IMG/VR virus record: IMGVR_UViG_3300020419_001035
Coordinates: 1 to 37,500 of that record
Strand: one strand, 5' to 3'
Source of the DNA: a virus
Taxonomy: Duplodnaviria; Caudoviricetes
Length of the DNA: 37,500 nt
The notes under the pieces: model-generated
Told to the model about the DNA's origin: nothing
Seen by the model: only the letters and a program-made list of their open reading frames with translations
The model's database searches: none
Program-made: the position numbers and the translations under genes
Shown: piece after piece, positions 3,001-31,742 of the stretch
How the letters are laid out: every line of letters begins with the position of its first letter
How positions within the stretch are numbered: position 1 is the first letter of the stretch

Positions 3001-5837
3001 CGAGACCTGCATTCTTTAAAGCGAATGAAGGTACACAGATTATTGATAGTAATACTGAAAACCCAGTAAGACCTAACCCATTTGCTCAGACATTTAAAGT
3101 TGATGGATTTGATGGTGGTGTATTTGCTACAAGTTTAGATCTATTCTTTAATAAGAAGAGTGAAAATATTCCATTAAGAGTTTATATAACTGATGTTGTT
3201 AGTGGAAAACCAGGTAAGAATATTATTCCTGGTACTCAGAAAGTATTAACACCAGAAACATTCTTAAAAGTAGTCGCAAGTGATACACTTAATATTACAA
3301 AAGGTGAAAGTATAACTGGATCTAAATCCAATGCTTCTGGTCCTATCAGTAAAGTTATTGATAAAAATAATATTGAGATTGTTGCTAGTACAACAGGTAA
3401 TTATACATTAACAAACGATCAAGTATATACAGTTGTATTAGACAATAACAACGGTAAGAGTTTTGTTCAAGATGAACTATTAACTGTTACATCTATTACA
3501 CAAGCTAATAATGCTAACAATACACAATTCACACTCACCATTGCTAAAGATTCTGGTCGTGTAACTAGTTTGAATGTTTCTAATACAGGTAGTGGTTACG
3601 AATCTGCAATCATTACAATAGAAAGTCCTCAACTTCCTGGTGGTGGTAATGCTACTGCTACAGTTAGGGTTTCTCAAGGTCTTGTATATGATGCAGAGAT
3701 ATCTCTTTCTGGTTCAGGATATACAGAACCACCATCAATTGTTCTTAGAGGAACAGGATCTGGTAATGCTGGTGCTGTAATAGAATCTGAAATTACTATT
3801 GATACTCCAGCAGTAAGAATGGGTATTGCTATTGATGTTGAAGGAGAGACACAATCAATCACTCCTACTAAGTTTAACTTCGACTTCCCTGTATATCTTG
3901 AAAATGATACTGAGTATGCTCTTGCTATAGAGACAGATTCTATTGACTATGAGATGTGGGCATCTACATTAGGTGGAGTTGAAATTGCTACTAGTCAAAT
4001 TGTAACAACGCAACCTGCTTTAGGATCTCTGTTTAAGTCTCAAAATATAAACTCTTGGACAGAGGATCTATTTGAAGATATTAAGTTTGTCTTGAATCGT
4101 GCAGACTTTGATATTAGTAGAACTGCAAGTCTTGTACTATCCAATGATAATCTAGGGTTTGAACCATTAGATCACGATCCTATTGAAACTAATGCAGAAG
4201 CAAATACTACTGCTACATCAACGTTGTTTAAGAATAATAACTATATTGTTAAGGTCAATCATAGAGATAATGGTTTCGACCTTAATAAGTCATGGGTTTA
4301 CTTCAAGAATGCAGTTGATGTTGGTGGTGTAACTGCTTCCTCTTTAAATAGCAATCTTTATAAGGTTTCTAATACTGGTGTTGATTACTACAACATCACT
4401 GGAACTACTAGAGCGTCTGGTAATTCCTTCGGTGGTGGTACAAGTGTACTAGCAACATATAATAGAAAGTTTGAAAAATTATATGCTTCTATATCCAATC
4501 TAACCTTTAGTCAGACTAAGATTAATAGTTTTGTTAAAACAACCAATGTTTCACCAATAGATGATAATATTGGAACCTTTACATCATATTCTCAGACTGA
4601 TTATGAAAAGACATTCTTAAATGAAGATTTCTATTTCATCAATCAAAAGATTGTTGCTTCTAAGATTAATGAAACTGCTAATGGTATCAATAATTCATTA
4701 CTATACAAATTAGACTTATCATCTACTGTGTCTCATTTGAGTCCAGTTATTGATCTTGCTAGAGCATCTGTTAAAACTATTAGTAACCGTGTTGAATCTT
4801 CTTCAGGTTCAGAGGAACGTTATGGTAGAAGGAATCAAATTGTATCCTTCTTACCTGTATACTCATTCACTGCATCTGGTCTTCAAGGTGCTGAAGTAAT
4901 TAATAATAATCAAACTCTTGTTGGTGTTACTTCAAAAGCAGAAGGTACTATTGTTAAAGTTGATGGAAGCACAGTATATGTAAAAGTAACTACGGTTAAT
5001 ACTTTTGTTGCTGGTGAAACACTAACATTTAGTGGTCAGTCATTTACTGGAACTATTACTGTTGGAACAACTGGTCTTGTTAAATTTGCATTTGATATTC
5101 CAAATACTACAACACCACCAACATATGTGACTGCAAGAAATCCTTCTGTTGTTGCCCAAACATATGACAATAAGATATCTGGTAGGATACTCTTATGGAA
5201 TAATAAATCTGGTGAATTAACTACTGTTAATGATAAGCAACCAATTAATGATGATTACAATGGAAGACTTATTGATAATAGTAGTTTTGATAGAAATGCT
5301 AATGTAGATGATCAGTTGAATGATATCTTTAGAGTTGGGGATTTGATTTCATATCCAAATCAACCAGTAGATGAAGCAAGTTTCATTGAAATTGCAGCAG
5401 TATCATATTCAGATGGTATTGATTTTATTTCTGAGACACAATCTAAGAATAGTTCTGGAATTGCTAAGTATGTAACTAAAGAAATTTCTATTGAAAATCC
5501 TGCTACATCTATTGATGTAAAACTTACTGCTAATGTAACTGATACTAAGAATTTACAGATCCTTTATAAACTTAAGAAGTCTTCTTCACAGGAAAACTTT
5601 GAGGATATTGAATGGATTTATTTCAACACATCAGGTGAACCTGATGTAGATACTATTGCTTCTTCTGAAAATGCTATCAGTGGTATAACAGAGAAACAGT
5701 CTTCATATCAGGAACTATCTTACAGCATAGAGAATCTACCAGAATTTTCATCCTATGCAGTTAAGATTGTCATGAAGTCTAATAATCCTGCATTCGTTCC
5801 TAAGATTCAGGATATGAGGGCAGTAGCATCATACTAA
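1..5837 (+). CDS. Large virion structural protein, VrlC/DUF4815-like (baseplate/tail associated); 5'-truncated
   Basis: The frame of ORF 903..5837 is open from position 3 (IDGVEYDNSKILVNVSG...), so the real start lies upstream of the window. It contains the motifs NRRYTMRDIGKLEKRIERLEYYTTLSILE, RFKSGFIVDNF and a C-terminal PKIQDMRAVA, typical of this family in T4-like cyanophages. Confidence 0.8.
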   Translation, partial: IDGVEYDNSKILVNVSGDQLVYSVGIIDRDAAGVEYSQPPLVEIVDAGASSQAVVVPVLVRNAVTTYTPQNVKSFYSQFGSGNSNTFTADIEINKEKYSEVVSVTDFTFSGTKGRKYIECTGFGGNATTFVIHGDLIQFTDDTGNLVRGVVQQSTEPAGVYKSRIYLDRSLPNTVTNASVVRVRPSIENFNQGTLLYKTGSNQISSIVATSDDSKITYYLRRDFISTGSGGAGSITFAAQLPFGTQRFVSFSESNFLITVLDAGDAPDVAAGDVVYITSDQVEIKASTDAASGLTSGSVKLNLPSGYFGSTSYTTYPTLKLTATLEVTKAKPRLKTANLNKRIVVESAGDKIVPFRGRDYDTESLDVFSYADAFNLRYVYEGSSSTPPVVDKSGNLVTGTDVTNRFTFDDGQRDTIYDISRLVIKPGFEAPVGQLVVAFDYFDHTSGDFITVDSYLHEAGVGPEEIPSFNSPVLGKVSLKDVLDFRPKVDNDAIIGGFQNTSLLSSPNSRSFTGTGGIVSSTPAPDSNLEYTFSFTQTQYLDRIDGLFLNKKGQFIVKEGNSSLNPSKPDVISDAIALYYMYIPAFTQSGKDVRITPVDNRRYTMRDIGKLEKRIERLEYYTTLSILEQQALNMQITDAAGVNRFKSGFIVDNFETHKIGSLKSLDYKCAIDTQQSVLRPQAKEDSIDLVEVNNRDDQRSVSGYQKTGDIVTLPYTELELLGNNFATKTVNPNPFVVLQYVGDSFIGPSVDSWYDNSVEPLVTDNNTNLYSIFLAKENLKEAFSSLYNSYKVNWLGANQAFYNIGSFAEVNSNIADSNVATAAVGTSSNISPQNNEVGKGLVTKGVGSNVVVTSLSYFARSIPVKFKINRLKPNTKVYVFMEGRDIARWVNPDLKYTGIAANSLSAFNGSVTTDNNGNASGVILVPAGVPPRENAVWTGNVDTVSYDTDADELRFSTGVKTIRFTSSSTDADTKDVETFAEVKFYATGIVPENPSSIISTRPAFFKANEGTQIIDSNTENPVRPNPFAQTFKVDGFDGGVFATSLDLFFNKKSENIPLRVYITDVVSGKPGKNIIPGTQKVLTPETFLKVVASDTLNITKGESITGSKSNASGPISKVIDKNNIEIVASTTGNYTLTNDQVYTVVLDNNNGKSFVQDELLTVTSITQANNANNTQFTLTIAKDSGRVTSLNVSNTGSGYESAIITIESPQLPGGGNATATVRVSQGLVYDAEISLSGSGYTEPPSIVLRGTGSGNAGAVIESEITIDTPAVRMGIAIDVEGETQSITPTKFNFDFPVYLENDTEYALAIETDSIDYEMWASTLGGVEIATSQIVTTQPALGSLFKSQNINSWTEDLFEDIKFVLNRADFDISRTASLVLSNDNLGFEPLDHDPIETNAEANTTATSTLFKNNNYIVKVNHRDNGFDLNKSWVYFKNAVDVGGVTASSLNSNLYKVSNTGVDYYNITGTTRASGNSFGGGTSVLATYNRKFEKLYASISNLTFSQTKINSFVKTTNVSPIDDNIGTFTSYSQTDYEKTFLNEDFYFINQKIVASKINETANGINNSLLYKLDLSSTVSHLSPVIDLARASVKTISNRVESSSGSEERYGRRNQIVSFLPVYSFTASGLQGAEVINNNQTLVGVTSKAEGTIVKVDGSTVYVKVTTVNTFVAGETLTFSGQSFTGTITVGTTGLVKFAFDIPNTTTPPTYVTARNPSVVAQTYDNKISGRILLWNNKSGELTTVNDKQPINDDYNGRLIDNSSFDRNANVDDQLNDIFRVGDLISYPNQPVDEASFIEIAAVSYSDGIDFISETQSKNSSGIAKYVTKEISIENPATSIDVKLTANVTDTKNLQILYKLKKSSSQENFEDIEWIYFNTSGEPDVDTIASSENAISGITEKQSSYQELSYSIENLPEFSSYAVKIVMKSNNPAFVPKIQDMRAVASY

Positions 5838-10631: not shown

Positions 10632-10967
10632 ATGGCAGCGATACCTGTAAATATAGTCGTTGACCGTCATGCAAACTTTGACGTAACTTTCTTTATTACT
10701 AATAAAGATGGTACATCATTGAACATGACAGGATATACTGGTGAGGCTAATTTTAAAACTAGTCACGCATCATCAACGGCAGTTGCTGTACCTTTGGTAT
10801 TTGTCAATCGAACTGCTGGTGAGATTGGTATATCAATGACTAGTACAGAAACAGGTGCTTTAGACCGTAGAAGATATGTCTATGACATTCTCTTGACTGC
10901 TCCAACTGGATACAAGACAAGAGTTATCGAAGGATTGGTGGAAGTTAATCCTGGAGTATCGTCATAA
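10632..10967 (+). CDS. Small virion structural/adaptor protein (BppU-N/Ig-like)
   Basis: 111 aa; pattern LNMTGYTG...GEIGISMTSTETGAL..RRYVYDILL...KTRVIEGLVEVNPGVS is common in T4-like cyanophage tail regions. Confidence 0.75.
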   Translation: MAAIPVNIVVDRHANFDVTFFITNKDGTSLNMTGYTGEANFKTSHASSTAVAVPLVFVNRTAGEIGISMTSTETGALDRRRYVYDILLTAPTGYKTRVIEGLVEVNPGVSS

Positions 10968-11686
10968 TGGCAGAGTATACCGTTAGAGTTGGATCTCAGC
11001 AACACAGTGTTGCTCTGAGAGAGAACCCTGCGTATAACTTGGATGTTAATTATCAAATTCCAACCAAGTCTACACAGTATACAAACTTAATACTTGATGA
11101 TATATCTGGTGGATTTGATGGTACACAAGATACGTTCACTCTTTCTGTTAACGGATCACCATATACACCAATAGATGAACAGCAATTATTGATCTCTATC
11201 AATGATGTAGTTCTCAAACCAAATACAGATTATATCGTTTCAAACGATCAAATTGTTTTTAGTACTCCACCTACTTCAGGACTTAGATTTTCTGGTGTTG
11301 CTTTAGTAACCACCGCAGATCTAACAAGAACTCTCAATTTTGTTATTGATGCTGGATCATTCCCAATGGCAATAGGACCAAAGGGTGATATGGCAATCGA
11401 TGTTACTGGTACTATTGAATCATGGATTCTGGTAGCAGATATTGCAGGTAATATTGAAGTAGATATATTGAAGTGTGCTTACGATGACTTTCCTAACTTC
11501 ACTTCAATAACAGGAACAGAAACACCGAGACTAGGTATTCTAAATACCAGTACAGAAATTAAATCGAAGGATGATAATCTTTCGACTTGGAACACCACAG
11601 TTAACGCTGGTGATATCTTCAGATTCAATGTAAACCATGTCCTGAACATAAGTAAGGCTAGTGTTGCACTGAGGATAAAATTATAA
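10967..11686 (+). CDS. Virion structural protein
   Basis: 239 aa, TAATG-coupled to the upstream gene. Contains the LDDISGGFDG..TFTL...LLISINDVVLKP..DY....IVFSTPP module seen in cyanophage baseplate/fibre proteins. Confidence 0.75.
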   Translation: MAEYTVRVGSQQHSVALRENPAYNLDVNYQIPTKSTQYTNLILDDISGGFDGTQDTFTLSVNGSPYTPIDEQQLLISINDVVLKPNTDYIVSNDQIVFSTPPTSGLRFSGVALVTTADLTRTLNFVIDAGSFPMAIGPKGDMAIDVTGTIESWILVADIAGNIEVDILKCAYDDFPNFTSITGTETPRLGILNTSTEIKSKDDNLSTWNTTVNAGDIFRFNVNHVLNISKASVALRIKL

Positions 11687-11743: not shown

Positions 11744-13132
11744 ATGGCACTCTTAGTCACCGACAACGGCGAGATTGATTCTCTAAGGAATCTGCTAAAC
11801 TATTCGCAGAACATCCCTAGGAACCTTATTCTTAAGTTGTTCACTACAGATACATATCCTGCTGAGAGTGACACTCCCTCACAGACAAGATATTTCGAAC
11901 CATACACCGAGAACAATACTAACGGTTATGGTGGAGCACCTACTACAGGATATCCTGCAATCATCAATAATAGGACTGATCAGGATTATGCACAGCAATA
12001 TGGTATCTTGCTGAACGGTAACCGTTGGGGAATTGAGACTGAACCAACTGCTGTCACAACAACTAATGGTGATGGTACATCTGGAACATACCTAGTTACG
12101 GTTGCTTCTAACACAGGTATTAAAAAAGGTGACTATGTTACTGGTGGATCTGTCGGCACTGGTGCATATGTTGTTGACATTGATGGTACTACACTTAACT
12201 TAAGTGTTAAGAACACTGGTAACTTCACTGCACAACCATTAAGTTTTGGTAGAGGACGTACAACTGCTTCTTATCCAGAGCAAACATTTACATTTGATGG
12301 TCCTGCTGGTAACGTATACGGTTATTTCCTTTCACGTGCTAACAACATGCCTACAACCATTCATGGTGTAGCTGATGCTGGTACTGCTGCTACAGGAACA
12401 GAGATTTCTAAGTCTGGTGTTCGTGGTACTATCGGAAACAACTATATCACTCTTGCTGCTGTTGCTTCAACCACTGCTGCTACTGGTACTGCTGGTGAGT
12501 TCGAAGTTGTTGTTACAGCTACAACTGGAATCGTTGTTGGACAACGTGTTACTGGAACTAACGTTGCTCAGGGAGCACGTGTTACTGGAATCGTTGGTAC
12601 TACAGTTTATCTAAGTAAGGCAAACGGTGGTGCTGTTAGTGGCGACTTGGTATTCCAAGCAAACGTTGCTGAAGATCTTGCTCTTGGAATGAGAGTTTCT
12701 CAGACAACTACACCTAATGGTATTGATGCTGCTACAGTTATTACTGGTATCGATTACGAGACAGATGATACAGACGGAACAGTAACTGTATATCTCAATA
12801 ACGTTCTTATTGAGAACATTCAGACTTCTAACGGTAATGACGTTGTTAAGTTTAACTTCAGTAAAGTAACTGCTACAGGGCATGGTCTAGAACCAGGCGA
12901 TGCAGTTTACATCGATCAGGGAACAGGTAATACCACAACTACTGCTGGTACTTACATTGTATTTGAGACTCCTGATGCAAACACCTTCACGACTACTAAA
13001 GCACTTGATGGAACAGGTTCTGTGACACTCTATGATGCAATATTCTTCGCTGAAAGGTTCACAAATGGTCCTTACGCTATTCAAAACGCTGGTGACCAAA
13101 TCAAAGTGACTCTGAACGTCAGCCTAGACTGA
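11744..13132 (+). CDS. Abundant virion structural protein, probable major fibre/filament subunit
   Basis: 462 aa, T/G/V-rich, strongly biased codons (aac, ttc, atc, cgt). Double late promoter upstream and terminator downstream. Confidence 0.7.
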   Translation: MALLVTDNGEIDSLRNLLNYSQNIPRNLILKLFTTDTYPAESDTPSQTRYFEPYTENNTNGYGGAPTTGYPAIINNRTDQDYAQQYGILLNGNRWGIETEPTAVTTTNGDGTSGTYLVTVASNTGIKKGDYVTGGSVGTGAYVVDIDGTTLNLSVKNTGNFTAQPLSFGRGRTTASYPEQTFTFDGPAGNVYGYFLSRANNMPTTIHGVADAGTAATGTEISKSGVRGTIGNNYITLAAVASTTAATGTAGEFEVVVTATTGIVVGQRVTGTNVAQGARVTGIVGTTVYLSKANGGAVSGDLVFQANVAEDLALGMRVSQTTTPNGIDAATVITGIDYETDDTDGTVTVYLNNVLIENIQTSNGNDVVKFNFSKVTATGHGLEPGDAVYIDQGTGNTTTTAGTYIVFETPDANTFTTTKALDGTGSVTLYDAIFFAERFTNGPYAIQNAGDQIKVTLNVSLD

Positions 13133-13162
13133 TTGATTCAATTGAATTCATTATTATGTGTG

Positions 13163-13195
13163 AGGGGATTCGTTATTGGATCCCCTTTTTGTTTT
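13163..13195 (+). terminator. Rho-independent terminator
   Basis: aggggattc-gttatt-ggatcccct stem-loop followed by ttttgtttt. Confidence 0.85.
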
Positions 13196-13215: not shown

Positions 13216-16200
13216 ATGGCAACGCATGTCTATACAACTGGTATAGGTGGTCCATATGGATCAAGTTTTGCGCTGCGTATTTTTAGTGGAGAGAAAGCAT
13301 CATATACATGGGATCCTTCATGCATTGAACCGTTTATAAAACTTGACTACGGTTTAAGTTCATTAGCATCAACACCCACAACCGTTATTGACGGTGGATC
13401 TATCAACGACGTAGAAGCTGTTGCGGTTGATGATTGGGGTAGAATAATTTACACTGATGTTGTCCGACCTTACGGTTTCATCAGACCGAAGACTGCTACA
13501 CAGTGGACAGTTTTACATGCATGGGTTGGTACAGGTACTGTCTTCGAGATGGGCAATACCTACTATCGTCTCATGGCTCCTTGGATCGTTCAAGGTACAG
13601 TACGAGTATCAGGTAGTGCGGTTACACACTGGGTTCCAGACCTCGAATTCGACGGGTTGTTTGGGATCCAGTCCCTCACAACGGAAGCTTTCTCTAAGAA
13701 AGAATCTGGTGACGGTGAACTGTACAAGATTGGATCTGGTACAGTTACTAGAAGTATTTCAATTGAGTCCAAAGGACTATTCAGATTTAAGAGTAACGCA
13801 GAGGTTTCCTTCAGACCTAACTGGGTGGGATATGTTACAGCCCAGATTTCAGGAGAAGTCTCAGATATTAAGCGTACATTTGGATTTGAGGGTTCAGGTA
13901 CTCTACCTAATATTAATAGCGAAGATAATAGTAGAACATACGCATATAATAGTTCTGCTGTTGTTGAGTTTGAATATGAGGACTACGGAACGATTCCGAT
14001 ACAGTCCTATCAAGTTATCTCTACAAACCAAGTACTGTCAGGTGTAAGTACTGGTTCTGTAGTACAAATTAATCCTACAATAACTGCAACTGTAGATCCT
14101 AGTGGATATCAGGTTGCACCTCATTCGGGTACGTATACAGACTCGATTGAACATGCTCCAGTGTCTGTTGGTAAGACAACCAATCTTGACTGGGGTCTTC
14201 TTAGTATCACTGGTACTCTGTTCCCATACGGTATTGGTGAACTCAAAGGTACTGCTAAACAGAACTTCGTACCTAACTGGATTGGTACTGGTGAAGTTAA
14301 GGTTCAGGGTTCAGGTAGAGGAAGAACCAAACCGAAATGGATTGGATTCGTTAGGAATCTTGTTACTGGTACTCTTGCAGAGAGCACTAGTATTAGTGAG
14401 ATTGGATCTGGCGTACTATTCAACTTCTCTAGAGCAGACGAGGCATTCACCTTCACATATGAGGGTTCTGGTAACCTATACAAAATTGGTGGTGGTGAAG
14501 AGAGTGTCACTACAGACTACGTTGCTACTGGTACTCTTGCTCCATTACAATCTAACGTTAAGGTTAACTTCGTACCTAACTGGAGAGGTTTTGGTGTTCT
14601 TGATGTCACAGGTGAAGTTACCAACATCAAGAGAACATTTGGTGAACAACCATTTGGTACTATTCCAGTATTCACTGGAGATGCATACGCTGAAAGAGTT
14701 ACTTGGGATTACAACGATACTTCTATCGTACCATTTGGTTATGAAGACTTCGGTCCATTACCAGGAACTGCTACTGTCGAGGAGATATCTACAACTACGA
14801 TCCTCTCAGGTACATCTACAGGATCCGTTGTCAGGATTAACGTTGGTGTTGTTGCGGTAGTAGATCCAGACTATACAGTCTCTCTTGTATCTAACTTTAC
14901 ACCAGGTGCAACCTTTGATTATGGCATCATTGCTGAGGGTTACTCTGGTAATATTGATTGGGGATATATTTCTCAGACAGTATGGCAGTATCCTTTTGGT
15001 GCTCTTCAGTATACCAGCAATACACATACATCACGTACTGTTGGATTTATTGCAGAGGTTACATTCGATGCAGCGATCAAGATTCGTTCAGAGACTTGGG
15101 TACGTATCAACCCACAGTGGAATGGATTTATTCCAATTGATGTTACTGGTGAGGCAACTTACAGTGTTACCAGACCATACACAGGTGAAGGTCGTGCATT
15201 CAGTATTGTATACGCTGAAGCTTCACGTGTATTTGACTACGTTGGTCAAGGTCAGATCTACAAGATTGGTGGTGCAGTTGAATCTGTATCCTTCAACCCA
15301 GATGAGAAGCAGGCTCTATTCCCAATCAGGGGTGTTGCTGACATTAGATTTGCACCTAATTGGAATGCCTTTGGTACTCTTTGGGCATCTCAGGGAACAG
15401 CAGAACCTGTACTTAGATCCTTCTCTTATGAAGGTACAGGTAATCTATCTACTCTTATTGGTGGATCTACATGTAGAACTTATGATTACAATGAGACATC
15501 TACAAATCTACATCAGTACAGAGATTATGCAAGTCTACCTGGTGTCGGTACTATCACCGAGATCACACCAAGTCAGAGTATCACTGGTACATCACCAACT
15601 TCTATTATCAGAATTGGTCTCAATGGTGTTGTTGCAAACATACCTGTTGGTCAGACATACGAGATCGATCCTTGGCTCTCAGGTGGAGCAACAACAATCC
15701 ACGACGGTGGATCAATTACAGATCCTGGTGCAACGGTAAGAGAGGATTATGGATTTACATCCACAATCAGTTCTATCAGAACAAAAGTTTCCGAATACCC
15801 ATTTGGAAAACTTGTCAGTTTTGTTTCTATTGCAGCACCTGCTCAGACGAAGATCTTCATATCGGATGGTATCGAATGGGAGCAAGCGATCAAGATTCGT
15901 TCAGAGTCAGAAGTTCGTGTTCCACCTCAGTGGGTTACTCAAGAACCAGTACTGTGGTCTTGGAGTGGTGCAGCAGAATGTACAGCAGTCATTCCACCAA
16001 CAGATGCACCGCAGTTCAAATTTACTGGTGGTTATACAAGTCTCAAGTTTATCACAGCAGAAGTTGGTTCTGCACACATGGAAGTATCTGGTCGTTGCCA
16101 AGAGGCAATTGTATCAGACACCAACAGATTCGTTATTATCGACGTTTCTGGAAACGCAGCAGAGAACTTCAGTCTTCACTTCCATGGATCTGGAAACCTC

Positions 16201-18666
16201 TTCACTATTGGAGCAAGTTCCGAAGCGGTTACATTCGATATACCTGCATTCCAAGCAGACCTCACATTTGGTGGATTTGCAAGTCAGAAGTTTACTGTTG
16301 CAGAACAGTTTACAGTCGATATCGATCTTTCTGGTACTGCACTGGAGAAACATACAGAAGACTGGGTTGGTCAATCTCATACAGAGATATTCAACACATC
16401 TGTTGTACCACTCATCACGAAGCATTGGACTGGAGAAGGTCGGATCTTCAACTTCAGTGGTGCAGTCGAAGCGGTTACATTCAACCCACTCGAACTTGGA
16501 GCACTATTCGACTTCACAGGTCGTCTCGACGAACGTCGTACATTTGCTATTACTGGTCTTGTTCTCACAGAAGTACGTGGAACATCAAGTCCAGAACTAC
16601 TTACATTTGCAGAGCAACCATTCGTTCCAGTCGATGTTACTGGAGATGCTGCTCTTCTCAGGACACGTGCTTATCAAGGAGAAGGTCAAGTCTTCTCTGT
16701 TGGTGGAGCAGCAGAGTCTATTACTCTCAAACTTCCAGAGTTTACAGCAGACGCAGTTGTCAAGGGTGCTGTATCTCAGAGATTCACCTTTGGTGGCAAT
16801 ATTGGATCTGGTGTATTCACAGTCTTTGGAGAGATTGCAGATCCACTACTTACATTCGCAGAACAACCACTCGGAAACATATATCTCAGTGGAGATGCGG
16901 TTGTTGTCAACGTCGATATTCACTTTGGTGTTGGTGGACTGTTCTCTATTGGAGCAGCAAACGAGGCTATCACTCTCAAATTACCTGCCTTCCAAGCAGA
17001 TATATCATTCAGTCCAGAGAAAGCAGGTGTTGCTGCAACATTCAGAGAGATTGGTCAAGGAGAAATTCTCTTCAGTGGAGAAGTTTCAGAACCAATTCTC
17101 ACATTTGCAGAGCAACCAAGTATCGAAGTCGATATCTTTGGTGCTTCTACATCTTCCAGATCTCACGTATGGGTTGGCGAAGGTCGTATATTTGCTATCA
17201 GTGGTGCAGCAGAGAGTGTCACATTTGTCTTGCCAGAATTCCAGGCAGACATGGCACTCAAAGGGTTTGGTGCATTCATCAGAACCTTCAGCGAGAGATT
17301 CACAGTCGAGTCCAAACTGTCTGGCACAGCAAGTATCAAGTACATTCCAAACTGGATTGGTTCTGGTACTACAACAATCGATGTTACATCCACATTCTCT
17401 CGCACGAGAGACTTTGTTGGAGAAGGAAGGATCTTCAACATCAGTGGTGCATCCGAAAGTGTTACCTTCAATCCAGAAGAGAAGCAGATACTATTCTCTA
17501 TTGGTGGTACAAAAACAGAAACTGTTGCATTCAGTCCAGACGAAGTACCAGTATTCCTCGATATTACTGGAGAAGCATTCGAGAGATTCACACCAAACAA
17601 TATTGGTTCTGGTACTATCTACGTCGATGTTACAACAGACGTTACTCGTACAAGAGACTTTGTTGGAGAAGGACGTATCTTCAACATCAGTGGTGCTTCA
17701 GAGAGTTTCACTGTCAACCCAGACGAGACTACTGCACTATTCTCTATTGGTGGTGTTTCAAGTCAGGCTGTTGTCAGAAGAGAGATTGTATTTGGTACAC
17801 TCTTTGGATTCTCTGGTGCTTCAGAAAGTGTTGGAGTCGTACCAGAAGCAACAGGACTCTTCACATTCAAGGGTCGTGCAGAGGAAGCAACAACATTCGT
17901 CGAAGTTGGATTCGGAGATCTATTCAACTTTGTTACCAGCATTGAGCGTCGTACATTTGATTGGACTTCTCAAATCGATCTTGGTGTTTCTGGTATTGCA
18001 GACGAGAAGCATACAGAAGCATACGTTGGATTTGGTCGTCTTTACAACTTTGCTGGTGCTGCCGAGACAATTGCATTCTCTCCAGAACTCTATGGAGTTG
18101 TACATGTATTTGGTGCAGCAGATACACCAAGAACAAGAGTTACAGTTGGAACTGGATCATTCTTCACATGGAACAATGCATCCGAATCCAGAACAATTAC
18201 ATACGAGAATGTTGCAATCTTCGACTTCTTGGGTGTTGCAAGACAGGCAATTACAAGAAACATTCTTACAGATGTTACTGTCGAGGTCAGAGGATCAGGT
18301 GCAGAATCCTTTACAAGGAAGGGATATATTGGAGAAGGTTCCGCATCATTCTCTGGAGAATCTACTTCCAGTATTACAACTACACACGATGGTTCAGGAA
18401 GGATCGATGTCTTCGAAGAGGACAATATTCCTACTATTGTCAAGAGCTTCGTTGGTTCAGGTCGTATACCTTCTGTATCAAGTGCAGAAGTCCTCCGTGT
18501 CTTCAGTTACGATGGACACTGCCCAATTGAGATTGATATCACAACCAAAGTTATTGCACCTTATCAGAGATTTGTATCTGAAGGTGGAGTTATTTTACAT
18601 GTTGGTGAAGGTACAACAAGACGCATACAAGTTGCACCACCAAGATCTTATGGTTGGATTATCTAA
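13216..18666 (+). CDS. 1816-aa repetitive virion protein (putative fibre scaffold/ruler)
   Basis: About 20-aa periodic GxGxxFxxxGxxxExxTF units throughout; four larger modules in the N-terminal half (YxYN...DYG...DWG...P(Y/F)G); RBS ggagg upstream. Confidence 0.8.
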   Translation: MATHVYTTGIGGPYGSSFALRIFSGEKASYTWDPSCIEPFIKLDYGLSSLASTPTTVIDGGSINDVEAVAVDDWGRIIYTDVVRPYGFIRPKTATQWTVLHAWVGTGTVFEMGNTYYRLMAPWIVQGTVRVSGSAVTHWVPDLEFDGLFGIQSLTTEAFSKKESGDGELYKIGSGTVTRSISIESKGLFRFKSNAEVSFRPNWVGYVTAQISGEVSDIKRTFGFEGSGTLPNINSEDNSRTYAYNSSAVVEFEYEDYGTIPIQSYQVISTNQVLSGVSTGSVVQINPTITATVDPSGYQVAPHSGTYTDSIEHAPVSVGKTTNLDWGLLSITGTLFPYGIGELKGTAKQNFVPNWIGTGEVKVQGSGRGRTKPKWIGFVRNLVTGTLAESTSISEIGSGVLFNFSRADEAFTFTYEGSGNLYKIGGGEESVTTDYVATGTLAPLQSNVKVNFVPNWRGFGVLDVTGEVTNIKRTFGEQPFGTIPVFTGDAYAERVTWDYNDTSIVPFGYEDFGPLPGTATVEEISTTTILSGTSTGSVVRINVGVVAVVDPDYTVSLVSNFTPGATFDYGIIAEGYSGNIDWGYISQTVWQYPFGALQYTSNTHTSRTVGFIAEVTFDAAIKIRSETWVRINPQWNGFIPIDVTGEATYSVTRPYTGEGRAFSIVYAEASRVFDYVGQGQIYKIGGAVESVSFNPDEKQALFPIRGVADIRFAPNWNAFGTLWASQGTAEPVLRSFSYEGTGNLSTLIGGSTCRTYDYNETSTNLHQYRDYASLPGVGTITEITPSQSITGTSPTSIIRIGLNGVVANIPVGQTYEIDPWLSGGATTIHDGGSITDPGATVREDYGFTSTISSIRTKVSEYPFGKLVSFVSIAAPAQTKIFISDGIEWEQAIKIRSESEVRVPPQWVTQEPVLWSWSGAAECTAVIPPTDAPQFKFTGGYTSLKFITAEVGSAHMEVSGRCQEAIVSDTNRFVIIDVSGNAAENFSLHFHGSGNLFTIGASSEAVTFDIPAFQADLTFGGFASQKFTVAEQFTVDIDLSGTALEKHTEDWVGQSHTEIFNTSVVPLITKHWTGEGRIFNFSGAVEAVTFNPLELGALFDFTGRLDERRTFAITGLVLTEVRGTSSPELLTFAEQPFVPVDVTGDAALLRTRAYQGEGQVFSVGGAAESITLKLPEFTADAVVKGAVSQRFTFGGNIGSGVFTVFGEIADPLLTFAEQPLGNIYLSGDAVVVNVDIHFGVGGLFSIGAANEAITLKLPAFQADISFSPEKAGVAATFREIGQGEILFSGEVSEPILTFAEQPSIEVDIFGASTSSRSHVWVGEGRIFAISGAAESVTFVLPEFQADMALKGFGAFIRTFSERFTVESKLSGTASIKYIPNWIGSGTTTIDVTSTFSRTRDFVGEGRIFNISGASESVTFNPEEKQILFSIGGTKTETVAFSPDEVPVFLDITGEAFERFTPNNIGSGTIYVDVTTDVTRTRDFVGEGRIFNISGASESFTVNPDETTALFSIGGVSSQAVVRREIVFGTLFGFSGASESVGVVPEATGLFTFKGRAEEATTFVEVGFGDLFNFVTSIERRTFDWTSQIDLGVSGIADEKHTEAYVGFGRLYNFAGAAETIAFSPELYGVVHVFGAADTPRTRVTVGTGSFFTWNNASESRTITYENVAIFDFLGVARQAITRNILTDVTVEVRGSGAESFTRKGYIGEGSASFSGESTSSITTTHDGSGRIDVFEEDNIPTIVKSFVGSGRIPSVSSAEVLRVFSYDGHCPIEIDITTKVIAPYQRFVSEGGVILHVGEGTTRRIQVAPPRSYGWII
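15072..15906 (+). repeat. 22-nt exact direct repeat (15072-15093, 15885-15906)
   Basis: agcgatcaagattcgttcagag (AIKIRSE) at the ends of two large modules. Confidence 0.8.
17407..17696 (+). repeat. 44-nt near-exact direct repeat (17407-17450, 17653-17696)
   Basis: agagactttgttggagaagga.g.atcttcaacatcagtggtgc (RDFVGEGRIFNISGA), 246 nt apart. Confidence 0.8.
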
Positions 18667-18674
18667 TATAAATA
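18667..18674 (+). promoter_or_regulatory. T4-type late promoter
   Basis: TATAAATA directly after the stop codon at 18666; variant CATAAATA at 18678-18685. Confidence 0.75.
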
Positions 18675-18708
18675 TCTCATAAATATATTTGGTATCGAAT
18701 AATCACTG

Positions 18709-19585: not shown

Positions 19586-22500
19586 ATGGCAGATTTTAGA
19601 CTTGGTAGACTAAAATTTAACTGGAGAGGTGACTGGACGGCTGCGACCGCCTATGTCATTGATGACATTGTTAAATTTGGTGCTAACACATACGTTGCTT
19701 CCGCAAACCATACATCGGTTTCTTCAGCAGCACAATGGTACGGAACTGACGCTGGTAGTTGGTCACTTCATACTGAAGGGATTTACAATGCTGGTGATTG
19801 GGCTGCAGCCACATTCTATAAACTTAACGATATAGTTAAGTATGGTAACATTCTTTATAGAACGACTACACCCCATACAACAACAGCGACGTTTGATATC
19901 GCTAAGTTCTCTGCTTACTTGGATGGTCTCAAGTTTGAAGATACATGGGATTCTTCTACAGAGTATCAGAAAGGAGACATCGTAACTTACGGTGGTTATT
20001 CATATGTCGCTCTTCAAACTAGCACTGCTATTCAGCCAAATAATGGTATTGGTGTTCAGTGGGATATCTTAACTACAGGTTTTAAGGTTGTTGGTAACTG
20101 GGATAGTACTACAACATACAAACCAGGCGACGTTGTACTCTTAGGTGGTAACTCATACGTTGCTAAGACAACTAATATTAATTCATCTCCAGCATCCAAT
20201 GCATCTGATTGGGACTTCATTGTTGGAGGTTTCACTTGGAAAGGTACTTGGGATGTAGGTACAACATATTATCCAGGTGATGCTGTTACTAGAAATAGTA
20301 ACTCACATATTTGTGTTGCTGAGAACTCAGCACAAGCACCAGAGACAGACGTTAATGGTACATACTGGAATTCACTAGCGGAAGGAGCATCTGCCAATGT
20401 TCTGACTACATCTGGTGACGTTCTTTATCAAGGTGGTTCTGGTCCTGCTAGGTTGCCTATTGGTTCAGAGAATAAAGTTTTAACTGTTGACTCAACAGGA
20501 TATCCATCATGGAAAGAGAGTCACGTTACACATAGAGTTTATTACGTTACTCCAGAAGGTTCTGACCTTAATGCTGGTAGTAGTATTACAGCAGCATGGA
20601 GAACAGTTCGTCACGCTGTAGATAACGTAACTGGTCCTGCAACAATCTATGTTAAGGCAGGAACATATAATGAAATCCTTCCAATGAGGGTTCCTGAGCA
20701 AGTAGGTATTGTTGGTGATAACTTAAGAACATCAAGGATTCAGGCAAGAGCTGGTGAACCTTCAAGTGTTGTTAAACTTACACTTGCACAAGTACCTGAT
20801 GCTCAGTATAGAGTTCTTGGTGCTACTATCACATCTGGTGATGGAAGTAAGACTGGTGAAGTTATTGACGTTAGAGAAGGTGGTTCTGACATCTATGTTC
20901 AGACTGATGGATTTGTCAATAACAAAACTGGTGACTCATATAACCTATTAACATCTAACACACAGTTCCTTGTCAAGGAAACTCTTGCACAAGCCGCTGC
21001 TGGTGGTGTTACTATTACTAGTCCTCCTGGTGGAGATGCTTCTGTATTTGAAAGCAAAATGGCTGGTTTGGTTCAGGATATTACTGCTAACTTAGGTTAT
21101 GGTGGTAACGACCGTGTTTATGACACAGTTGATAATTGGATCACTACTAACTATTGGAATGGTGGTGAGGCAGAAGTTAATCAGATCTTAGGATACTTAA
21201 CTCCTCTTATGAAAGATGTTATCAATAACACAACAATTACTGTTGTTGGTACTCATGGATTAGGTCAGGTTAAGAACGAGTCTATTACAGATATCAGTAA
21301 TTATGGACAGGCAACCTGTATTGTTCAGGAAGCAACTATTACAACATTAATTGGAGTTGTAACAACTGGATTAGGTTCTGGACTTGGAAGTGTAACTAGA
21401 GACGCTAATGCTAACCTTTGGACAACTTCAGACACATATGAAGCAGGTTCTACAGATATTGCTATCAGTAGTGTAACACCTATCAATAACGAAAACTTAA
21501 CTATGTGGATGCTAGGAAGCACCACTATGCTTAAGGACATGGTTATGGATGGAATGGGTGGATTCGTTCCTTCTGTTTCTGATCCTAAAGATCTTAACAC
21601 TGCTACAATGGGTGGTGTTTATGTACGTCTAGATCCTAACTCACCAATTAAGAGATCACCTTACGTATCAAACTGTTCTTGCTTCGGTCCAACTGGAGTT
21701 GGTGCTGTTATTGATGGTGATGTTCACGCTAAGTGGGATAACACAGCACAGTTTACACCAACAAATGCTGTATATAATCCTTCTACAGGTGATATGACTC
21801 TTACTCTTGGTTCAAGTCATGGGTTAACTGCTGGATCTAGTATTCAATTAGCACAAGCATCTATCACATTCACTTGTGCTAAAGATGGTAATGCTACAAA
21901 CCATGCATATCCAAGAACAACTGACCCTTACTTTGGTAAGGAAATTGTAATTACTTCAGCAGACGCAACAACCATTACTATTAATGTTGGTATTGCTGCT
22001 CCTGCTGATCAGTATGGACATACATTTGTAAGTGCTTCTACTAACGCTGTTACGTTTGATAATAGATCAAACAAAACAATGGTGTTTGACTCTTGGACAC
22101 AAATCCATGAGGATGGTGGTGTAGGTTTCTGGGTTACAAACAAGGCAGGTGCTGAGATTGTATCTTGCTTTACTTACTACTGTCATGTTTCTTATGCTTC
22201 TACACGTGGTGGTAGAATCAGATCTCTTGCAGGTAACTCTTCTTGGGGTGTTTATGGTATTGTATCTTCTGGATTTGATAATAATGAATCAACTCTTGAT
22301 GGTAATATCGATGGATTATCACTTGAATATGATGCAGGAACAATCGTTGCTGGAGCACAAGATTCAATTTGGTTGAATGAAGAAAGAGTTGTTGGATTAA
22401 CATCTGGTGCTGTTGGAGAGATCATCTCTGTACAGGCTGGTGTTGGTAAGATTCTTTATAGACCTTTCAAAGGAACCTTTGTACAAGGTGAAACTATAGA

Positions 22501-23677
22501 TGGTCAAACTTCTGGAGTACAAGGTGCTCTACTTAGCAACGCTGATGCTGTTGGTGGTCAGAATGGATTCGTACTTGCCATAACTGGTAGGTCATCTGCC
22601 CCTGTTCCAGGTGGTTCGATGGAATTTGTTACTGGTCCTGGTGGTGCTGGTGATGAACCATTCACATTCGTTATTGCGAACTCATCATATAATCCTCCTA
22701 CAGGAAGAGGTAACTTAACTGTTACTAGAGGACTGCTAGGAAGTGCTGCTGCTACTCATCTAGGTTTGGAACTGATCACTAGATATCAGTATGGTGGTGC
22801 TAGTAACTTGAGTTCTGCTGTTAACAGTTCTTCTGAAACCACAATTTTTGTTAACTCTATTTCAGGATTCTCAATTGGAGCATTCTGTATTGTAGGTGAT
22901 GAAATGATGGGTATTACTTCATTCCCAACAGCAACATCTATGGATGTTACTCGTGGAGTTGAAGGAACTAATGCTACTGCTCATACCAGTGGTGCTTCAG
23001 TTCGTGCTATTGAAATCAAGGTTGTCGATCAAACAGATACTTTGAGAGATCTTAATAACTCTCAAGATAATGTTAGAATTTCTGACGCTTCTGGTTTCAA
23101 TCTCAATGACTACATCAAGATTGATAATGAGTTTATGCAGGTAACAAACTCACAGACAGATACAACTGGTACTTCATTAGTTGTTCTTGCTGCTGAGAAA
23201 CCTACAAGAACCTTCGATGGACAAAACTATAAAATCAGATATGGTTATAGTCAAGTTCGTCTAACTGGTCATGACTTCCTAGACTTAGGTACAGGAAACA
23301 AACTACAAACTAACTGGCCTGGAGATCCATTAGTTGATCCAGCACCAGGCAATGAGGTCACTGAAGACTTCCCAGGACGTGTATTCTTTGTATCAACTGA
23401 CCAAGATGGTAACTTTACCGTTGGTCGTTACTTTAAGGTTAACCAGGCAACTGGTTCAACTACATTGAATGCATCATCTTTTGACCTATCTGGTCTATCA
23501 TCCTTGAGACTGGGTTCTATTGGTGCTCAGTTAGGAGAAAGTATCACAGAATTCTCTTCTGATGTTACTCTTTCTGCTAACTCAAACCAAAAAGTTCCTA
23601 CTCAACGTGCCGTCAAGACATACATTGACACCACACGTACGACTAAAGGATACGTATTCTGGGCAGGGTCAGTTTGA
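19586..23677 (+). CDS. Tail spike/fibre with tandem CBM5/12-like repeats and a pectin-lyase-like beta-helix
   Basis: 1363 aa. About five WxGxW...TxY..GD(I/V)VxYGG.SYV repeats, then VYYVTPEGSD.NAG.....WRTVRHA...TIYVKAGTYNE..P..VP..V.IVGDNLR. Strong RBS aagga. Confidence 0.8.
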   Translation: MADFRLGRLKFNWRGDWTAATAYVIDDIVKFGANTYVASANHTSVSSAAQWYGTDAGSWSLHTEGIYNAGDWAAATFYKLNDIVKYGNILYRTTTPHTTTATFDIAKFSAYLDGLKFEDTWDSSTEYQKGDIVTYGGYSYVALQTSTAIQPNNGIGVQWDILTTGFKVVGNWDSTTTYKPGDVVLLGGNSYVAKTTNINSSPASNASDWDFIVGGFTWKGTWDVGTTYYPGDAVTRNSNSHICVAENSAQAPETDVNGTYWNSLAEGASANVLTTSGDVLYQGGSGPARLPIGSENKVLTVDSTGYPSWKESHVTHRVYYVTPEGSDLNAGSSITAAWRTVRHAVDNVTGPATIYVKAGTYNEILPMRVPEQVGIVGDNLRTSRIQARAGEPSSVVKLTLAQVPDAQYRVLGATITSGDGSKTGEVIDVREGGSDIYVQTDGFVNNKTGDSYNLLTSNTQFLVKETLAQAAAGGVTITSPPGGDASVFESKMAGLVQDITANLGYGGNDRVYDTVDNWITTNYWNGGEAEVNQILGYLTPLMKDVINNTTITVVGTHGLGQVKNESITDISNYGQATCIVQEATITTLIGVVTTGLGSGLGSVTRDANANLWTTSDTYEAGSTDIAISSVTPINNENLTMWMLGSTTMLKDMVMDGMGGFVPSVSDPKDLNTATMGGVYVRLDPNSPIKRSPYVSNCSCFGPTGVGAVIDGDVHAKWDNTAQFTPTNAVYNPSTGDMTLTLGSSHGLTAGSSIQLAQASITFTCAKDGNATNHAYPRTTDPYFGKEIVITSADATTITINVGIAAPADQYGHTFVSASTNAVTFDNRSNKTMVFDSWTQIHEDGGVGFWVTNKAGAEIVSCFTYYCHVSYASTRGGRIRSLAGNSSWGVYGIVSSGFDNNESTLDGNIDGLSLEYDAGTIVAGAQDSIWLNEERVVGLTSGAVGEIISVQAGVGKILYRPFKGTFVQGETIDGQTSGVQGALLSNADAVGGQNGFVLAITGRSSAPVPGGSMEFVTGPGGAGDEPFTFVIANSSYNPPTGRGNLTVTRGLLGSAAATHLGLELITRYQYGGASNLSSAVNSSSETTIFVNSISGFSIGAFCIVGDEMMGITSFPTATSMDVTRGVEGTNATAHTSGASVRAIEIKVVDQTDTLRDLNNSQDNVRISDASGFNLNDYIKIDNEFMQVTNSQTDTTGTSLVVLAAEKPTRTFDGQNYKIRYGYSQVRLTGHDFLDLGTGNKLQTNWPGDPLVDPAPGNEVTEDFPGRVFFVSTDQDGNFTVGRYFKVNQATGSTTLNASSFDLSGLSSLRLGSIGAQLGESITEFSSDVTLSANSNQKVPTQRAVKTYIDTTRTTKGYVFWAGSV

Positions 23678-24438: not shown

Positions 24439-25365
24439 ATGTCAAGTTTACGAGATTTATTAGATGTACCTGATACCAATGTAGTCCCTATTCAGACTTA
24501 CATGGGTGGTGGGCAACATCAACTATATTACAGAGGCAACCACTGTTGGGAGTTCGGTAGTTCTTACAACTACGACTGGCAGCGTATAAGGTGGTGCGTT
24601 CCACCTTCATGTATCTGTAAGGTTAAGTTCGAACTCTGGGGAGGAGGAGGCGGTGGATCTGGTACATGTTGCTGTTCTATTGCTTGGAACGGACACTCTG
24701 GACAATATAGTTCTTGTACCGTTTGTGCTGCTGTTCAAGGAGTTTCTGCATTAGACAATTGTTGTTATGACATCTGTGTAGCAGGTGGTACATGTAGACA
24801 TCCTTCCAGAGGTGGTTTTGATGGTTGTAAGTCATATGTTGATGGACCAGGATTAAGCGACTTCTGTGCTTGTGGTGGTTGTAACGGAAGAAACTGTTGC
24901 CACTGGGTTGATTCTTACTTCGCTTGTAGAACTAAAATATTTGAAGAAGGTCCAGGATGTTGCAGAGGACAGTATGAGCATTACACACTAGGAAGTAGTG
25001 ATTGTATGGATGCTTGTGAAGCGAAAGGTAAGTGGTACTGGAACGCTCTTACACCATATATTCATTATGACTGTAACCCTGGTTGCGGTAACTGGTGCAT
25101 GAAGAAGGACTATCATCCTAACCCTCCTATGTACGGTGCTCGTTACGGTGTGTACAACGCTACAAGAAAACCTGACATGGCAAGTTGTGGTAGACGACAA
25201 ACACTATGGATGACTGGTAACAACGGTGGACTCTCAGGAGACTGCTGGAGAAATGGTCCTCCTGGTTCTGGTGGTACATCTGCTCAGGTATTCGGTGGTG
25301 GTTGCTGCTGTTCTTCTGAGGGTGCTCACGGACTCGTAAGAATCACTCTATTCTGCAAAACATAA
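24439..25365 (+). CDS. Cys-rich glycine-rich-domain protein 1 (putative adhesin)
   Basis: 308 aa, 33 Cys by hand count; WCVP..KFELWGGGGGG..CCC, FCACGG, PGSGG.SA..GGGCCC..G..GLVRIT. Confidence 0.8.
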   Translation: MSSLRDLLDVPDTNVVPIQTYMGGGQHQLYYRGNHCWEFGSSYNYDWQRIRWCVPPSCICKVKFELWGGGGGGSGTCCCSIAWNGHSGQYSSCTVCAAVQGVSALDNCCYDICVAGGTCRHPSRGGFDGCKSYVDGPGLSDFCACGGCNGRNCCHWVDSYFACRTKIFEEGPGCCRGQYEHYTLGSSDCMDACEAKGKWYWNALTPYIHYDCNPGCGNWCMKKDYHPNPPMYGARYGVYNATRKPDMASCGRRQTLWMTGNNGGLSGDCWRNGPPGSGGTSAQVFGGGCCCSSEGAHGLVRITLFCKT

Positions 25366-25375
25366 GGAAAGGCAA

Positions 25376-26296
25376 ATGAATTTACGAGAACTATTAGGCA
25401 GAGAATTTGCCTCAACAATCGACCAAACGATTGCAGAAAATACTTCATTAGAAAGAAACCACGAAGGAAGAGTATTCTTATTCGCACCTTATTGTAACCT
25501 AGGTAACTGCGAGTCTAACTACTGGGAGTATTGCATCCAACATTGGTGCGTACCTTGTGGAACTACTCAAGCAACTTTCGAGTTGTGGGGTGGTGGTGGA
25601 TCTGGTGGTGGTGCATGTTGCTGTATGCAAGGTGTTCCTGGTGGTGCTGGATCATATGTAAGAAAGACACTTCAGTATCCTGAGATACAAGGTGGTTGGT
25701 GTTATCAGTTATGTGTAGCATCACCAACCTGCTGCTCACGTTGTTGCTGTGGTATTAGTGGATGTAAGACATGGGTCACTGGATGTAACACTAGTAACCT
25801 CTGTGCTGATGGTGGACTTCCTGGTAAAACATGTTGCTGGGCTTTCTGGAACTCAACATATAGATGCCAAGATAAAGTTACTTTAGGTAGGAATCTTCAT
25901 ACTGATGGATCCTGCTCCTACGGTGGAGATTGCATGATCAAGGGTAAACCTGGATTCTTTTACAATGCTTGTGATGGTAATAACTGCTGGGCTAAAGGTA
26001 TGATGCCTGTTCCTGCTGGACTTATTAGCAACATGGGTGCATATATTACTCAGAACTATCAGGGTAATGCTTGTATTCATGAATATATGAACTGTACAGG
26101 TACAACACCTTGGGCATATAACATTAATTGTAACGCCACACTTCCTGGTGTTGGTTCTCCTTCTGCTACAGCATGTGGTGGTGGATGCTGCTATGGATGG
26201 CGTGGCAATGGTGGTTTAATTAGAATCACATACTGTTCATGCTGGTTACAGTCTGCGACTTCTAACGAAGACTGTGCTTGGTACTACTTTAACTAA
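25376..26296 (+). CDS. Cys-rich glycine-rich-domain protein 2 (putative adhesin)
   Basis: 306 aa, 34 Cys by hand count; WCVP..TFELWGGGGSGGGACCC, LCADGG, PGVG.PSA..CGGGCC..G.GGLIRIT. Confidence 0.8.
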   Translation: MNLRELLGREFASTIDQTIAENTSLERNHEGRVFLFAPYCNLGNCESNYWEYCIQHWCVPCGTTQATFELWGGGGSGGGACCCMQGVPGGAGSYVRKTLQYPEIQGGWCYQLCVASPTCCSRCCCGISGCKTWVTGCNTSNLCADGGLPGKTCCWAFWNSTYRCQDKVTLGRNLHTDGSCSYGGDCMIKGKPGFFYNACDGNNCWAKGMMPVPAGLISNMGAYITQNYQGNACIHEYMNCTGTTPWAYNINCNATLPGVGSPSATACGGGCCYGWRGNGGLIRITYCSCWLQSATSNEDCAWYYFN

Positions 26297-26319
26297 ATAA
26301 GAAGACAGAGGAACTTAGA

Positions 26320-29398: not shown

Positions 29399-29405
29399 GG
29401 AAATA

Positions 29406-31740: not shown

Positions 31741-31742
31741 TT

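Follow-up and report, generated by a model that had tools for sequence, protein, structure and literature searches.

Analysis of positions 1 to 37,500 of the virus record IMGVR_UViG_3300020419_001035 (Duplodnaviria; Caudoviricetes), a stretch of 37,500 nucleotides (nt) that is called the window here, showed that one gene in the tail module of a T4-like cyanophage has lost nearly all stop triplets from its two non-coding sense frames in the 3' part. The gene lies at 13216..18666 on the + strand and encodes a protein of 1816 amino acids (aa; phrog_11522); judged from sequence likeness and from synteny with S-SCSM2R and GP4, it probably encodes the rope of a chain-like tail fibre and is referred to as the rope gene. 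The loss of stops, referred to as the stop purge, is real, conserved, ongoing and non-coding. It tracks the rope repeats of the protein and leaves out the inserted domains, the opening 110 codons and the final 20.

Off-frame stop triplets in the putative rope gene

Within 15495-18527, just three stop triplets were found on the + strand, at 15737 (TAA), 17943 (TGA) and 17958 (TGA). The core stretch 15740..17942 (codons 842-1575) held no stop triplet in any forward frame, and a second triple-open stretch of about 190 codons followed at 17961..18527. The +1 frame was open for 980 codons (15740..18682), ending 5 codons beyond the main stop, and the -1 frame for 816 codons (15495..17945); no conserved product was found for either. 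The two TGA triplets formed a mid-rope pair in the -1 frame (17943..17960), the first of which was kept in all 10 full-length close relatives listed. A preliminary description of this DNA had given the same stop-free stretch, the same three stops and two off-frame open reading frames (ORFs) of 757 aa (15672..17945) and 977 aa (15749..18682), and its coordinates and counts were right. The stop-free gap from 15737 to 17943 measured 2206 nt, and the next-longest + strand gap outside the rope gene was 143 nt. The stop density of the - strand was normal, with a longest gap of 129 nt in the whole window.

Three null models were built by synonymous-codon shuffling that preserved the protein (1000 shuffles each; zone of 1010 codons). 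The zone had one off-frame stop in +1 and two in -1. Shuffles with the zone's own codon usage gave an expectation of 23.0 (+1) and 79.7 (-1), 103 in total, with minima of 13 and 60, while the codon usage of six neighbouring structural genes gave 42.8 and 114.8, 158 in total. The shuffle check proposed in the preliminary description never reached an equally long stop-free run, the maximum in 1000 own-usage shuffles being 315 nt compared with 2206 nt observed. When the off-phase triplets were ranked by depletion in the zone, the top four were all stop triplets. The avoided set had been described as exactly the stops; this held for the top of the ranking but was too narrow, as T|TT was also depleted (2 vs 31.6 expected). 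Another signal that had been overlooked was a +1 depletion across much of the 5' half (12 vs 25). The other 15 window genes tested had off-frame stops near expectation. The GC (guanine plus cytosine) content was 43%, and the purge persisted in shuffles that held codon usage fixed. Chance or codon bias was ruled out by the three shuffle nulls and by a genome-wide control in S-CAM1 and S-SSM7, and an assembly artefact was ruled out by the recurrence of the gap in independent contigs and in contigs of four DNA runs.

A total of 62 complete orthologues was reduced to 27 with less than 70% mutual identity. The rope length varied from 1369 to 3690 aa. The nearest named relatives were S-CAM1 (29%) and S-CAM3 (26%). 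In the last 500 codons, +1 stops fell under all 200 shuffles in 25/27 orthologues and -1 stops in 20/27, and the longest triple-open run was above all shuffles in 22/27; the stop-free zone was therefore kept across divergent relatives, as the preliminary description had proposed to check. Orthologue L057 was without the purge, and several lineages kept only the +1 frame open (in L144, +1 1/16 and -1 50/51). The S-CAM1 orthologue had one off-frame stop in about 1050 codons. In the genome-wide control (60 ORF pieces from S-CAM1 and 59 from S-SSM7, of whose 233 kb the first 200 were covered), the rope gene was the extreme outlier, with a longest triple-open run of 561 codons in S-CAM1 (next gene, 66) and of 399 codons in S-SSM7 (next gene, 60). 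For S-SSM7 and for the second S-CAM1 rope piece the ORF caller took the +1 frame, and start counts there are unusable.

Variants among 10 close relatives of the window gene showed that the selection is ongoing. Silent variants that make a -1 stop were found at 1/98 sites in the zone vs 32/147 non-stop controls (p 4e-7), and those that make a +1 stop at 0/64 vs 5/62 (p 0.026); in the 5' half, the -1 counts were 16/44 vs 34/126 controls (p 0.25). Together with the shuffles and the orthologues, these counts supported the earlier proposal of selection on sense-strand off-frame stops. The ratio of nonsynonymous to synonymous polymorphism (pN/pS) in the zone was 1.01 (+1) and 1.16 (-1), compared with 0.97 and 1.15 in regions in which these frames are closed; the off-frames therefore encode nothing conserved. 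The main frame was itself permissive, with a pN/pS of 0.40. Four-fold site divergence was 0.100 vs 0.110, and no silent-site conservation peak appeared in 60-codon windows. The off-frame translations had zero PHROG or Pfam matches, and those of the orthologue coding sequences gave 0 BLAST hits against main-frame orthologues and 120 database homologues.

The position of the purge was mapped in 25 orthologues with a mapped internal domain; the domains were located by profile and their boundaries are approximate. For +1 stops, the observed/expected counts were 159/680 (0.23) in the C-terminal rope, 261/413 (0.63) in the internal rope, 357/424 (0.84) in the domains and 179/109 (1.64) in the first 110 codons. 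For -1 stops, the C-terminal rope had 937/1943 (0.48), and the ratios were 0.89 in the internal rope, 0.98 in the domains and 1.00 in the first 110 codons. Across the 49 full copies of the domain, +1 stops were scarce in the 20 codons preceding it (3/20), near expectation in its middle, and few again once about 20 codons of the domain remained. At the C-terminus, 5/149 were counted at codons -200 to -21 and 17/15 in the last 20.

In the window, the inserted domain of about 100 aa ('DYG...DWG...YPFG') was present in three copies on the + strand. Copy 1 (13927..14232) tolerated +1 stops at codons 277-293; copy 2 (14692..15000) carried a double +1 TAG at 14858-14863, which was also present in copy 2 of S-CAM1; copy 3 (15469..15807) held the last +1 stop, the TAA at 15737. 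The conserved C-terminal motif PPRSYGWII was at 18628..18663; in the final 20 codons the +1 purge is relaxed. The mid-rope -1 stop was invariant inside each clade and differed in position between clades. Two further features of the inserts were observed. The domain-end motif alternates between YPFG, YAMG and YPMG, and S-SCSM2R gene 111 (L079:16131-20240) contains a propeller-like insert at about residues 350-720 (annotated TolB) with normal off-frame stops, the flanking rope being purged.

Other short signals were depleted as well. In the zones of 12 genes, the observed/expected counts were 9/155 for TTTT, 10/160 for T|TTC, 1/55 for TTT|Y and 0/22 for XXXYYYZ; 5' controls showed a milder TTTT depletion (49/226). 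TTTT and T|TTY were also two- to five-fold depleted in most long window genes, including those at 903-5837 and 19586-23677. In-frame ATG, GTG and TTG were each below the neighbouring genes in 27/27 orthologues, and CTG, ATA and CTA were not. The rates in rope vs neighbours were 0.23 vs 0.81% for ATG, 0.7 vs 4.0% for GTG/Val and 2.9 vs 13.2% for TTG/Leu, with 9 vs 8% for the CTG/Leu control. The Shine-Dalgarno (SD)-like word GAGG was depleted (67/182). In S-CAM1, the rope had the lowest start ratio (14/53; other virion genes 0.29-0.47). Off-frame starts were not purged; in the last 600 codons of 27 genes, 2032 off-frame ATG, GTG or TTG triplets lay in +1 and 44 in -1. Re-pairing sites in the off-frames were depleted (90/213, 94/117 and 111/163). 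TGG in -1 was raised (443/351, a count with no matching control). Despite the start purge in the gene as a whole, an ATG was kept right at the boundary between domain and rope (19 starts among 490 codons); it may be a programmed start that yields shorter ropes.

The putative rope and bead and the phage tmRNA

The rope protein consists of Gly-spaced hydrophobic strands in repeats of about 82 aa, with a domain of about 100 aa roughly every 250 residues and a hydrophobic C-terminal motif; the repeat spacings in the gene were all multiples of 3. Upstream lies a gene for a putative Gp80-like fibre subunit, or bead, with inserted domains (11744..13132, + strand; 462 aa; phrog_10467), which had a normal off-frame stop density. 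Homologues of the bead gene were also found in S-SSM7, S-SSM6a, Sf-FS3, S-SCSM2R and AG-345-P14; the S-SCSM2R homologue was labelled 'tail fiber rope protein' by its depositors. The first 100 aa of the bead had a language-model score of 0.94 to the PF23140 (Gp80) clusters, to which 24/30 hits belonged. Minimal bead homologues of 132 aa without insertions exist, and one of them, P0237, aligned with PF23140 end to end (E 2.4e-4). A PF23140 match was absent for the 462-aa protein and in five cyanophage genomes. The repeat and motif likeness to GP4, together with the Gp80-like upstream protein, led us to read the 1816-aa gene as likely the giant rope (scaffold) of a GP4/A1002-type chain-like fibre.

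In GP4, A1002 and Bas63, dimers sit bead-like on a rope (GP4 gp80 dimers; A1002 gp40/gp41 on gp39; Bas63 whiskers), and in A1002 and Bas63 the C-terminal side of the rope faces the virion, according to the accessible text of PMC13730344 and PMC12609058. By analogy with the rope C-terminus of A1002, Bas63 and GP4, the C-terminal motif likely anchors the rope to the tail adaptor. We also infer that the 462-aa protein may be a Gp80-type dimer that clamps rope strands, with dozens per rope. The gene order was the same as in known chain-like fibres, namely adaptor-like genes, a Gp80-like subunit and a repeat protein of Gly-spaced hydrophobic strands, and the GP4 gene that follows gp80 resembles the rope gene in its strand repeats and in a C-terminal P-x-R-T/S-hydrophobic motif. 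The sizes differed: the cyanophage ropes of 1369-3690 aa carry inserted domains, whereas the GP4 rope has 325 aa, and the beads have 335-475 aa compared with 140 aa in GP4. The accessible text on the known chain-like fibres makes no mention of off-frame stops.

Structure prediction with AlphaFold2 (AF2) gave a predicted local distance difference test score (pLDDT) of 32.5 for rope residues 841-1816 from a thin 22-row alignment. In the bead model the core was under pLDDT 50, and because of this a Foldseek search found no match at E<=0.001. PDB sequence searches gave nothing useful, and the rope zone was without a named Atlas hit. In RNA run X17, a contig that covers the bead gene stopped at 13106 and the rope was covered piecewise; contig depth is unfit to rank genes and was left unused. 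One joint in the RNA contigs, with a skip of 100, had a side of 22 letters.

An intrinsic-terminator-like hairpin with a U-run lies between the bead and rope genes (13162..13193, + strand) and was present in 22/25 orthologues with upstream sequence; it is predicted to keep rope mRNA scarce. The rope gene immediately follows the bead gene in most loci, the exceptions being L042, L047, L051 and L055. In L042 and L047 the hairpin was not found and the upstream neighbour of the rope was not the bead gene. The 111-aa and 239-aa genes at 10632..11686 (+ strand) are position-matched with S-SCSM2R genes that carry the depositor labels 'L-shaped tail fiber protein' and 'tail adaptor protein'. Immediately past the stop codon of the rope gene stands TATAAATA (18667..18674, + strand), which occurred within 45 nt in 18/27 orthologues and which we take to be the T4 late-promoter consensus; the next gene therefore likely has its own promoter. 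Compared with the bead gene, the window rope differed about five times faster among relatives (protein difference 0.120 vs 0.025), with similar silent divergence.

A two-piece (permuted) transfer-messenger RNA (tmRNA) of cyanobacterial type was detected by covariance model in S-CAM1, S-CAM3, S-SSM7 and Sf-FS3, and a tmRNA was detected by BLAST in S-SSM6a and AG-345-P14; in total, 6/7 named phages carrying the module had one. A tmRNA was also present on the L096 contig; the rope encoded there shares 41% identity with that of the window. The tags called by ARAGORN were 21-31 residues in most (17 on one contig) and carried a seven-residue extension ahead of the ANNIV of the Rfam consensus. S-CRM01 had a partial tmRNA-like hit and no bead-gene hit. 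The tmRNA genes are unannotated (L068:1486-1800 in S-CAM1; L069, S-CAM3; L082, Sf-FS3; L083, S-SSM7; L159-L180), and the listed cyanophage tmRNAs are missing from the 2014 phage table in the accessible part of PMC4131195. In S-CAM1 and S-CAM3 the tmRNA adjoins tRNA-Arg/Val, and some tags end in TA, not AA.

Candidate explanations for the stop purge

Fragments of the rope are probably the cost that is being avoided. A rope without its own fold would leave any piece still able to assemble, and a premature piece would lock up many 462-aa subunits, which would be far costlier than making a few hundred residues of junk; with such a balance, the usual 'ambush' benefit of early stops would be reversed. 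Within this idea we favour, tentatively and at somewhat less than even odds, a fail-safe: after a slip, the ribosome would go on to make a long junk tail that carries no beads, and the stub would be degraded and not set free with beads on it. A fail-safe for a ruler or scaffold was among the options of the preliminary description, and the protein, a putative fibre rope, does look scaffold-like. The junk-tail route is favoured because it would explain together the tolerance in the domains, the early stop excess, the 3' gradient and the purge of slip sites, and because the tail would weigh many times less than the subunits that one rope carries. Stops would be harmless inside a folded domain because truncation there already leaves an unfolded end, and internal starts may be purged because pieces with the C-terminal anchor would occupy adaptor sites. 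A third route to stubs, broken mRNA, would be covered by the phage tmRNA. The wider purge in +1 than in -1 fits the higher +1 share in a cell-free screen (49/82 high-shift +1 sites vs 12/82 -1 sites, in the accessible text of bioRxiv 10.1101/2025.10.02.679949). An extended version is doubtful, namely a sequence-encoded quality control for a molecular ruler, in which ribosomes that lose frame would return, or stay off-frame until they exit inside a folded domain, the tmRNA with its lengthened tag would clear the stubs, and three-frame translation would guard or vary the fibre length.

Several results weigh against this interpretation. The +1 purge ends 20 codons before the C-terminus and the -1 purge relaxes from about 80 codons before it, so that tails are short where stubs are longest, and the lone mid-rope -1 stop, kept in 8/8 members of the S-CAM1 clade, is unexplained. 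With a C-terminal anchor, a C-truncated stub could not dock and its cost would be just sequestration. No degron or stall tuning of the off-frames was seen, as +1 hydrophobicity was unchanged and Pro-Pro, Arg-Arg and basic runs were not clearly enriched. The depletion of U-runs and start codons is partly common to other virion genes. In S-SCSM2R, which carries the module and a triple-open run of 200 codons, two covariance models and ARAGORN found no tmRNA over the whole record; the tmRNA-module association was counted without kinship correction. For the identity of the bead, 3/33 minimal homologues matched PF23140, at 21.8, 22.6 and 16.7 bits, under the cut-off of 27 bits, and neither hhalign of the bead with GP4 gp80 nor profile comparisons with GP4 proteins were significant. 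No stop purge was found in the GP4 rope or in three other short genes that follow canonical Gp80, and 63 non-redundant ORFs after 132-aa beads (160 loci), many of them probably not ropes and most GC-rich, were unpurged (+1 1696/1730, -1 2053/2215).

The purge may otherwise concern what happens after a stop is met. If off-frame stops served as restart points, ribosomes that had entered an off-frame, through a slip or through spurious initiation on a sparsely translated mRNA, would terminate there, and restart in frame 0 would give short anchor-bearing ropes that block adaptor sites. The purge of in-frame starts and SD-like words suggests that anchor-bearing fragments are costly; the pile-up of off-frame starts in +1 fits the stronger +1 purge; and the purge ends 20 codons ahead of the C-terminus. 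By our own arithmetic NTGA and TRATG, the commonest coupling overlaps in the accessible text of PMC12548453, join a +1 stop to a frame-0 start, which likewise fits the stronger +1 purge, and unrecycled Escherichia coli ribosomes restart in all frames without AUG according to the accessible text of PMC9955659. The same text adds that AUG-free restart required loss of ribosome recycling factor plus heat, and that another study saw none. In the rope genes, stops with an in-frame start at most 13 codons downstream were not rarer (+1 31/275 vs 732/5515, p 0.41; -1 p 0.57), starts were purged equally in domains and rope, yet domain stops are tolerated, and the ATG at the domain/rope boundary is kept; restart is unlikely. 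Even less probable is a slip with return, in which a short off-frame excursion within the repeats would be survivable, with few beads lost and both rope ends kept. It gives the best fit to the tolerance map, since under it stops are expected to be tolerated in precisely those regions in which a junk stretch would be lethal anyway, namely the final 20 codons, the N-terminal domain and the inserted domains, and the main frame is permissive. However, a purge that stays flat to the segment edges demands a very high return rate, for which we know of no mechanism, the off-frame re-pairing sites are depleted and several lineages, such as L144, hold only +1 open. The preliminary description had offered frameshifting out of and back into frame: the map of tolerated stops agrees with this, but slippery sites show depletion and no enrichment. 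Because the domain boundaries are approximate, the tolerance windows cannot separate the three leading mechanisms from sequence.

A cost at the level of the mRNA is improbable too: termination in a scarce read-through mRNA would lead to cleavage, ribosome queuing or decay, and stalled ropes would need tmRNA rescue. The upstream terminator-like hairpin, the purge of U-runs and the tmRNA of 6/7 named phages agree with it, but it leaves the stop tolerance by protein region (domain middles, last 20 codons) unaccounted for, and S-SCSM2R is without a detectable tmRNA. Programmed frameshifting to fixed-length trans-frame products, ended by conserved lone or double stops, is very improbable. The double +1 TAG recurs in the same domain copy at about 29% identity and the mid-rope -1 stop is invariant within each clade; against this, that stop moves between clades and the tails are unconstrained, and the search for a conserved site found no XXXYYYZ where 22 were expected and no silent-site peak, a search that non-canonical +1 sites would escape. 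Least credible is tolerance of DNA-level indels, phase variation or true overlapping genes, which is largely refuted. The very long open frames and the wide range of rope lengths would suit it, but no frame-swapped hit was obtained, which also rejects frame-swapped evolution, and the repeat spacings are multiples of 3. Indel phase variation as offered in the preliminary description found no support: all indels listed in the contigs of 8 read runs (contigs drop rare variants) were paired and compensated and homopolymer runs were depleted. The triple overlapping coding offered there, or overprinted genes in general, was rejected: the second frames show no purifying selection (pN/pS of about 1) and no PHROG or Pfam match, and they are broken in a lineage-specific manner, with -1 closed in several lineages.

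Known systems and neighbouring genes

No published description of such a stop purge was found in the open-access main text of PMC and bioRxiv papers. Ambush or hidden stops share with the rope gene a selection on off-frame stop density against frameshift errors, and the first 110 codons do show the expected +1 excess, but in the rope the sign is opposite and long tails are favoured; the accessible text of the preprint bioRxiv 10.1101/2025.10.02.679949 reports selection for shorter frameshift products. Ambigrammatic narnaviruses, in the accessible text of PMC8316113 and PMC8155312, also have a kilobase-scale stop-free second frame without a conserved protein. Theirs is one antisense frame of an RNA virus, whereas here two sense frames of one structural gene of a double-stranded DNA phage are open, and the reverse strand of the window was not (129-nt gap). 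The PE_PGRS repeat genes of Mycobacterium tuberculosis are likewise poor in out-of-frame stops, and frameshift tolerance was proposed for them in the accessible text of PMC13328622; they are GC-rich and were read there as a case of DNA mutability, whereas the purge at 43% GC here is shuffle-proof and no frame-swapped relatives were found. Long second open frames inside structural genes are also found in the lambda Rz/Rz1 and phiX174 same-strand overlaps and in the lambda G/GT frameshift. Those systems have conserved products or one conserved slippery site; in the rope gene, neither was found.

The purge was rejected as a general property of rope genes, as the GP4 rope and the ORFs after canonical Gp80 or 132-aa beads were normal. 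In the 328-kb contig of a jumbo phage (L237), a 2038-aa ORF follows a 132-aa bead and has a TTTT count of 10/41 and no purge, and it may serve as a natural negative control.

The rope gene represents a natural case in which selection clears off-frame stops out of both non-coding sense frames, contrary to what the ambush idea predicts; the removal is near-complete over kilobases and holds across proteins about 25% identical. Since the purge follows the layout of the protein, what one frameshift error costs can be tested directly: a single silent base change suffices to place an off-frame stop in a repeat of the rope or inside a domain, and S-CAM1 (host Synechococcus WH7803) is culturable. The system also suggests a possible function for the tmRNA that phages encode, and it points to design rules for the expression of long scaffolds whose fragments still assemble.

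Further along the window, three tandem phrog_4205 paralogues of about 300 aa were found at 24439-27222, after two 107-aa fibre-associated genes. Directly past the tail module, the region 28211-36682 contained two Nol-like carbamoyltransferases, two 2-oxoglutarate (2OG)-Fe(II) oxygenase-like genes, a heptose nucleotidyltransferase-like gene and a nucleotide-sugar epimerase, a cluster possibly involved in virion glycosylation.

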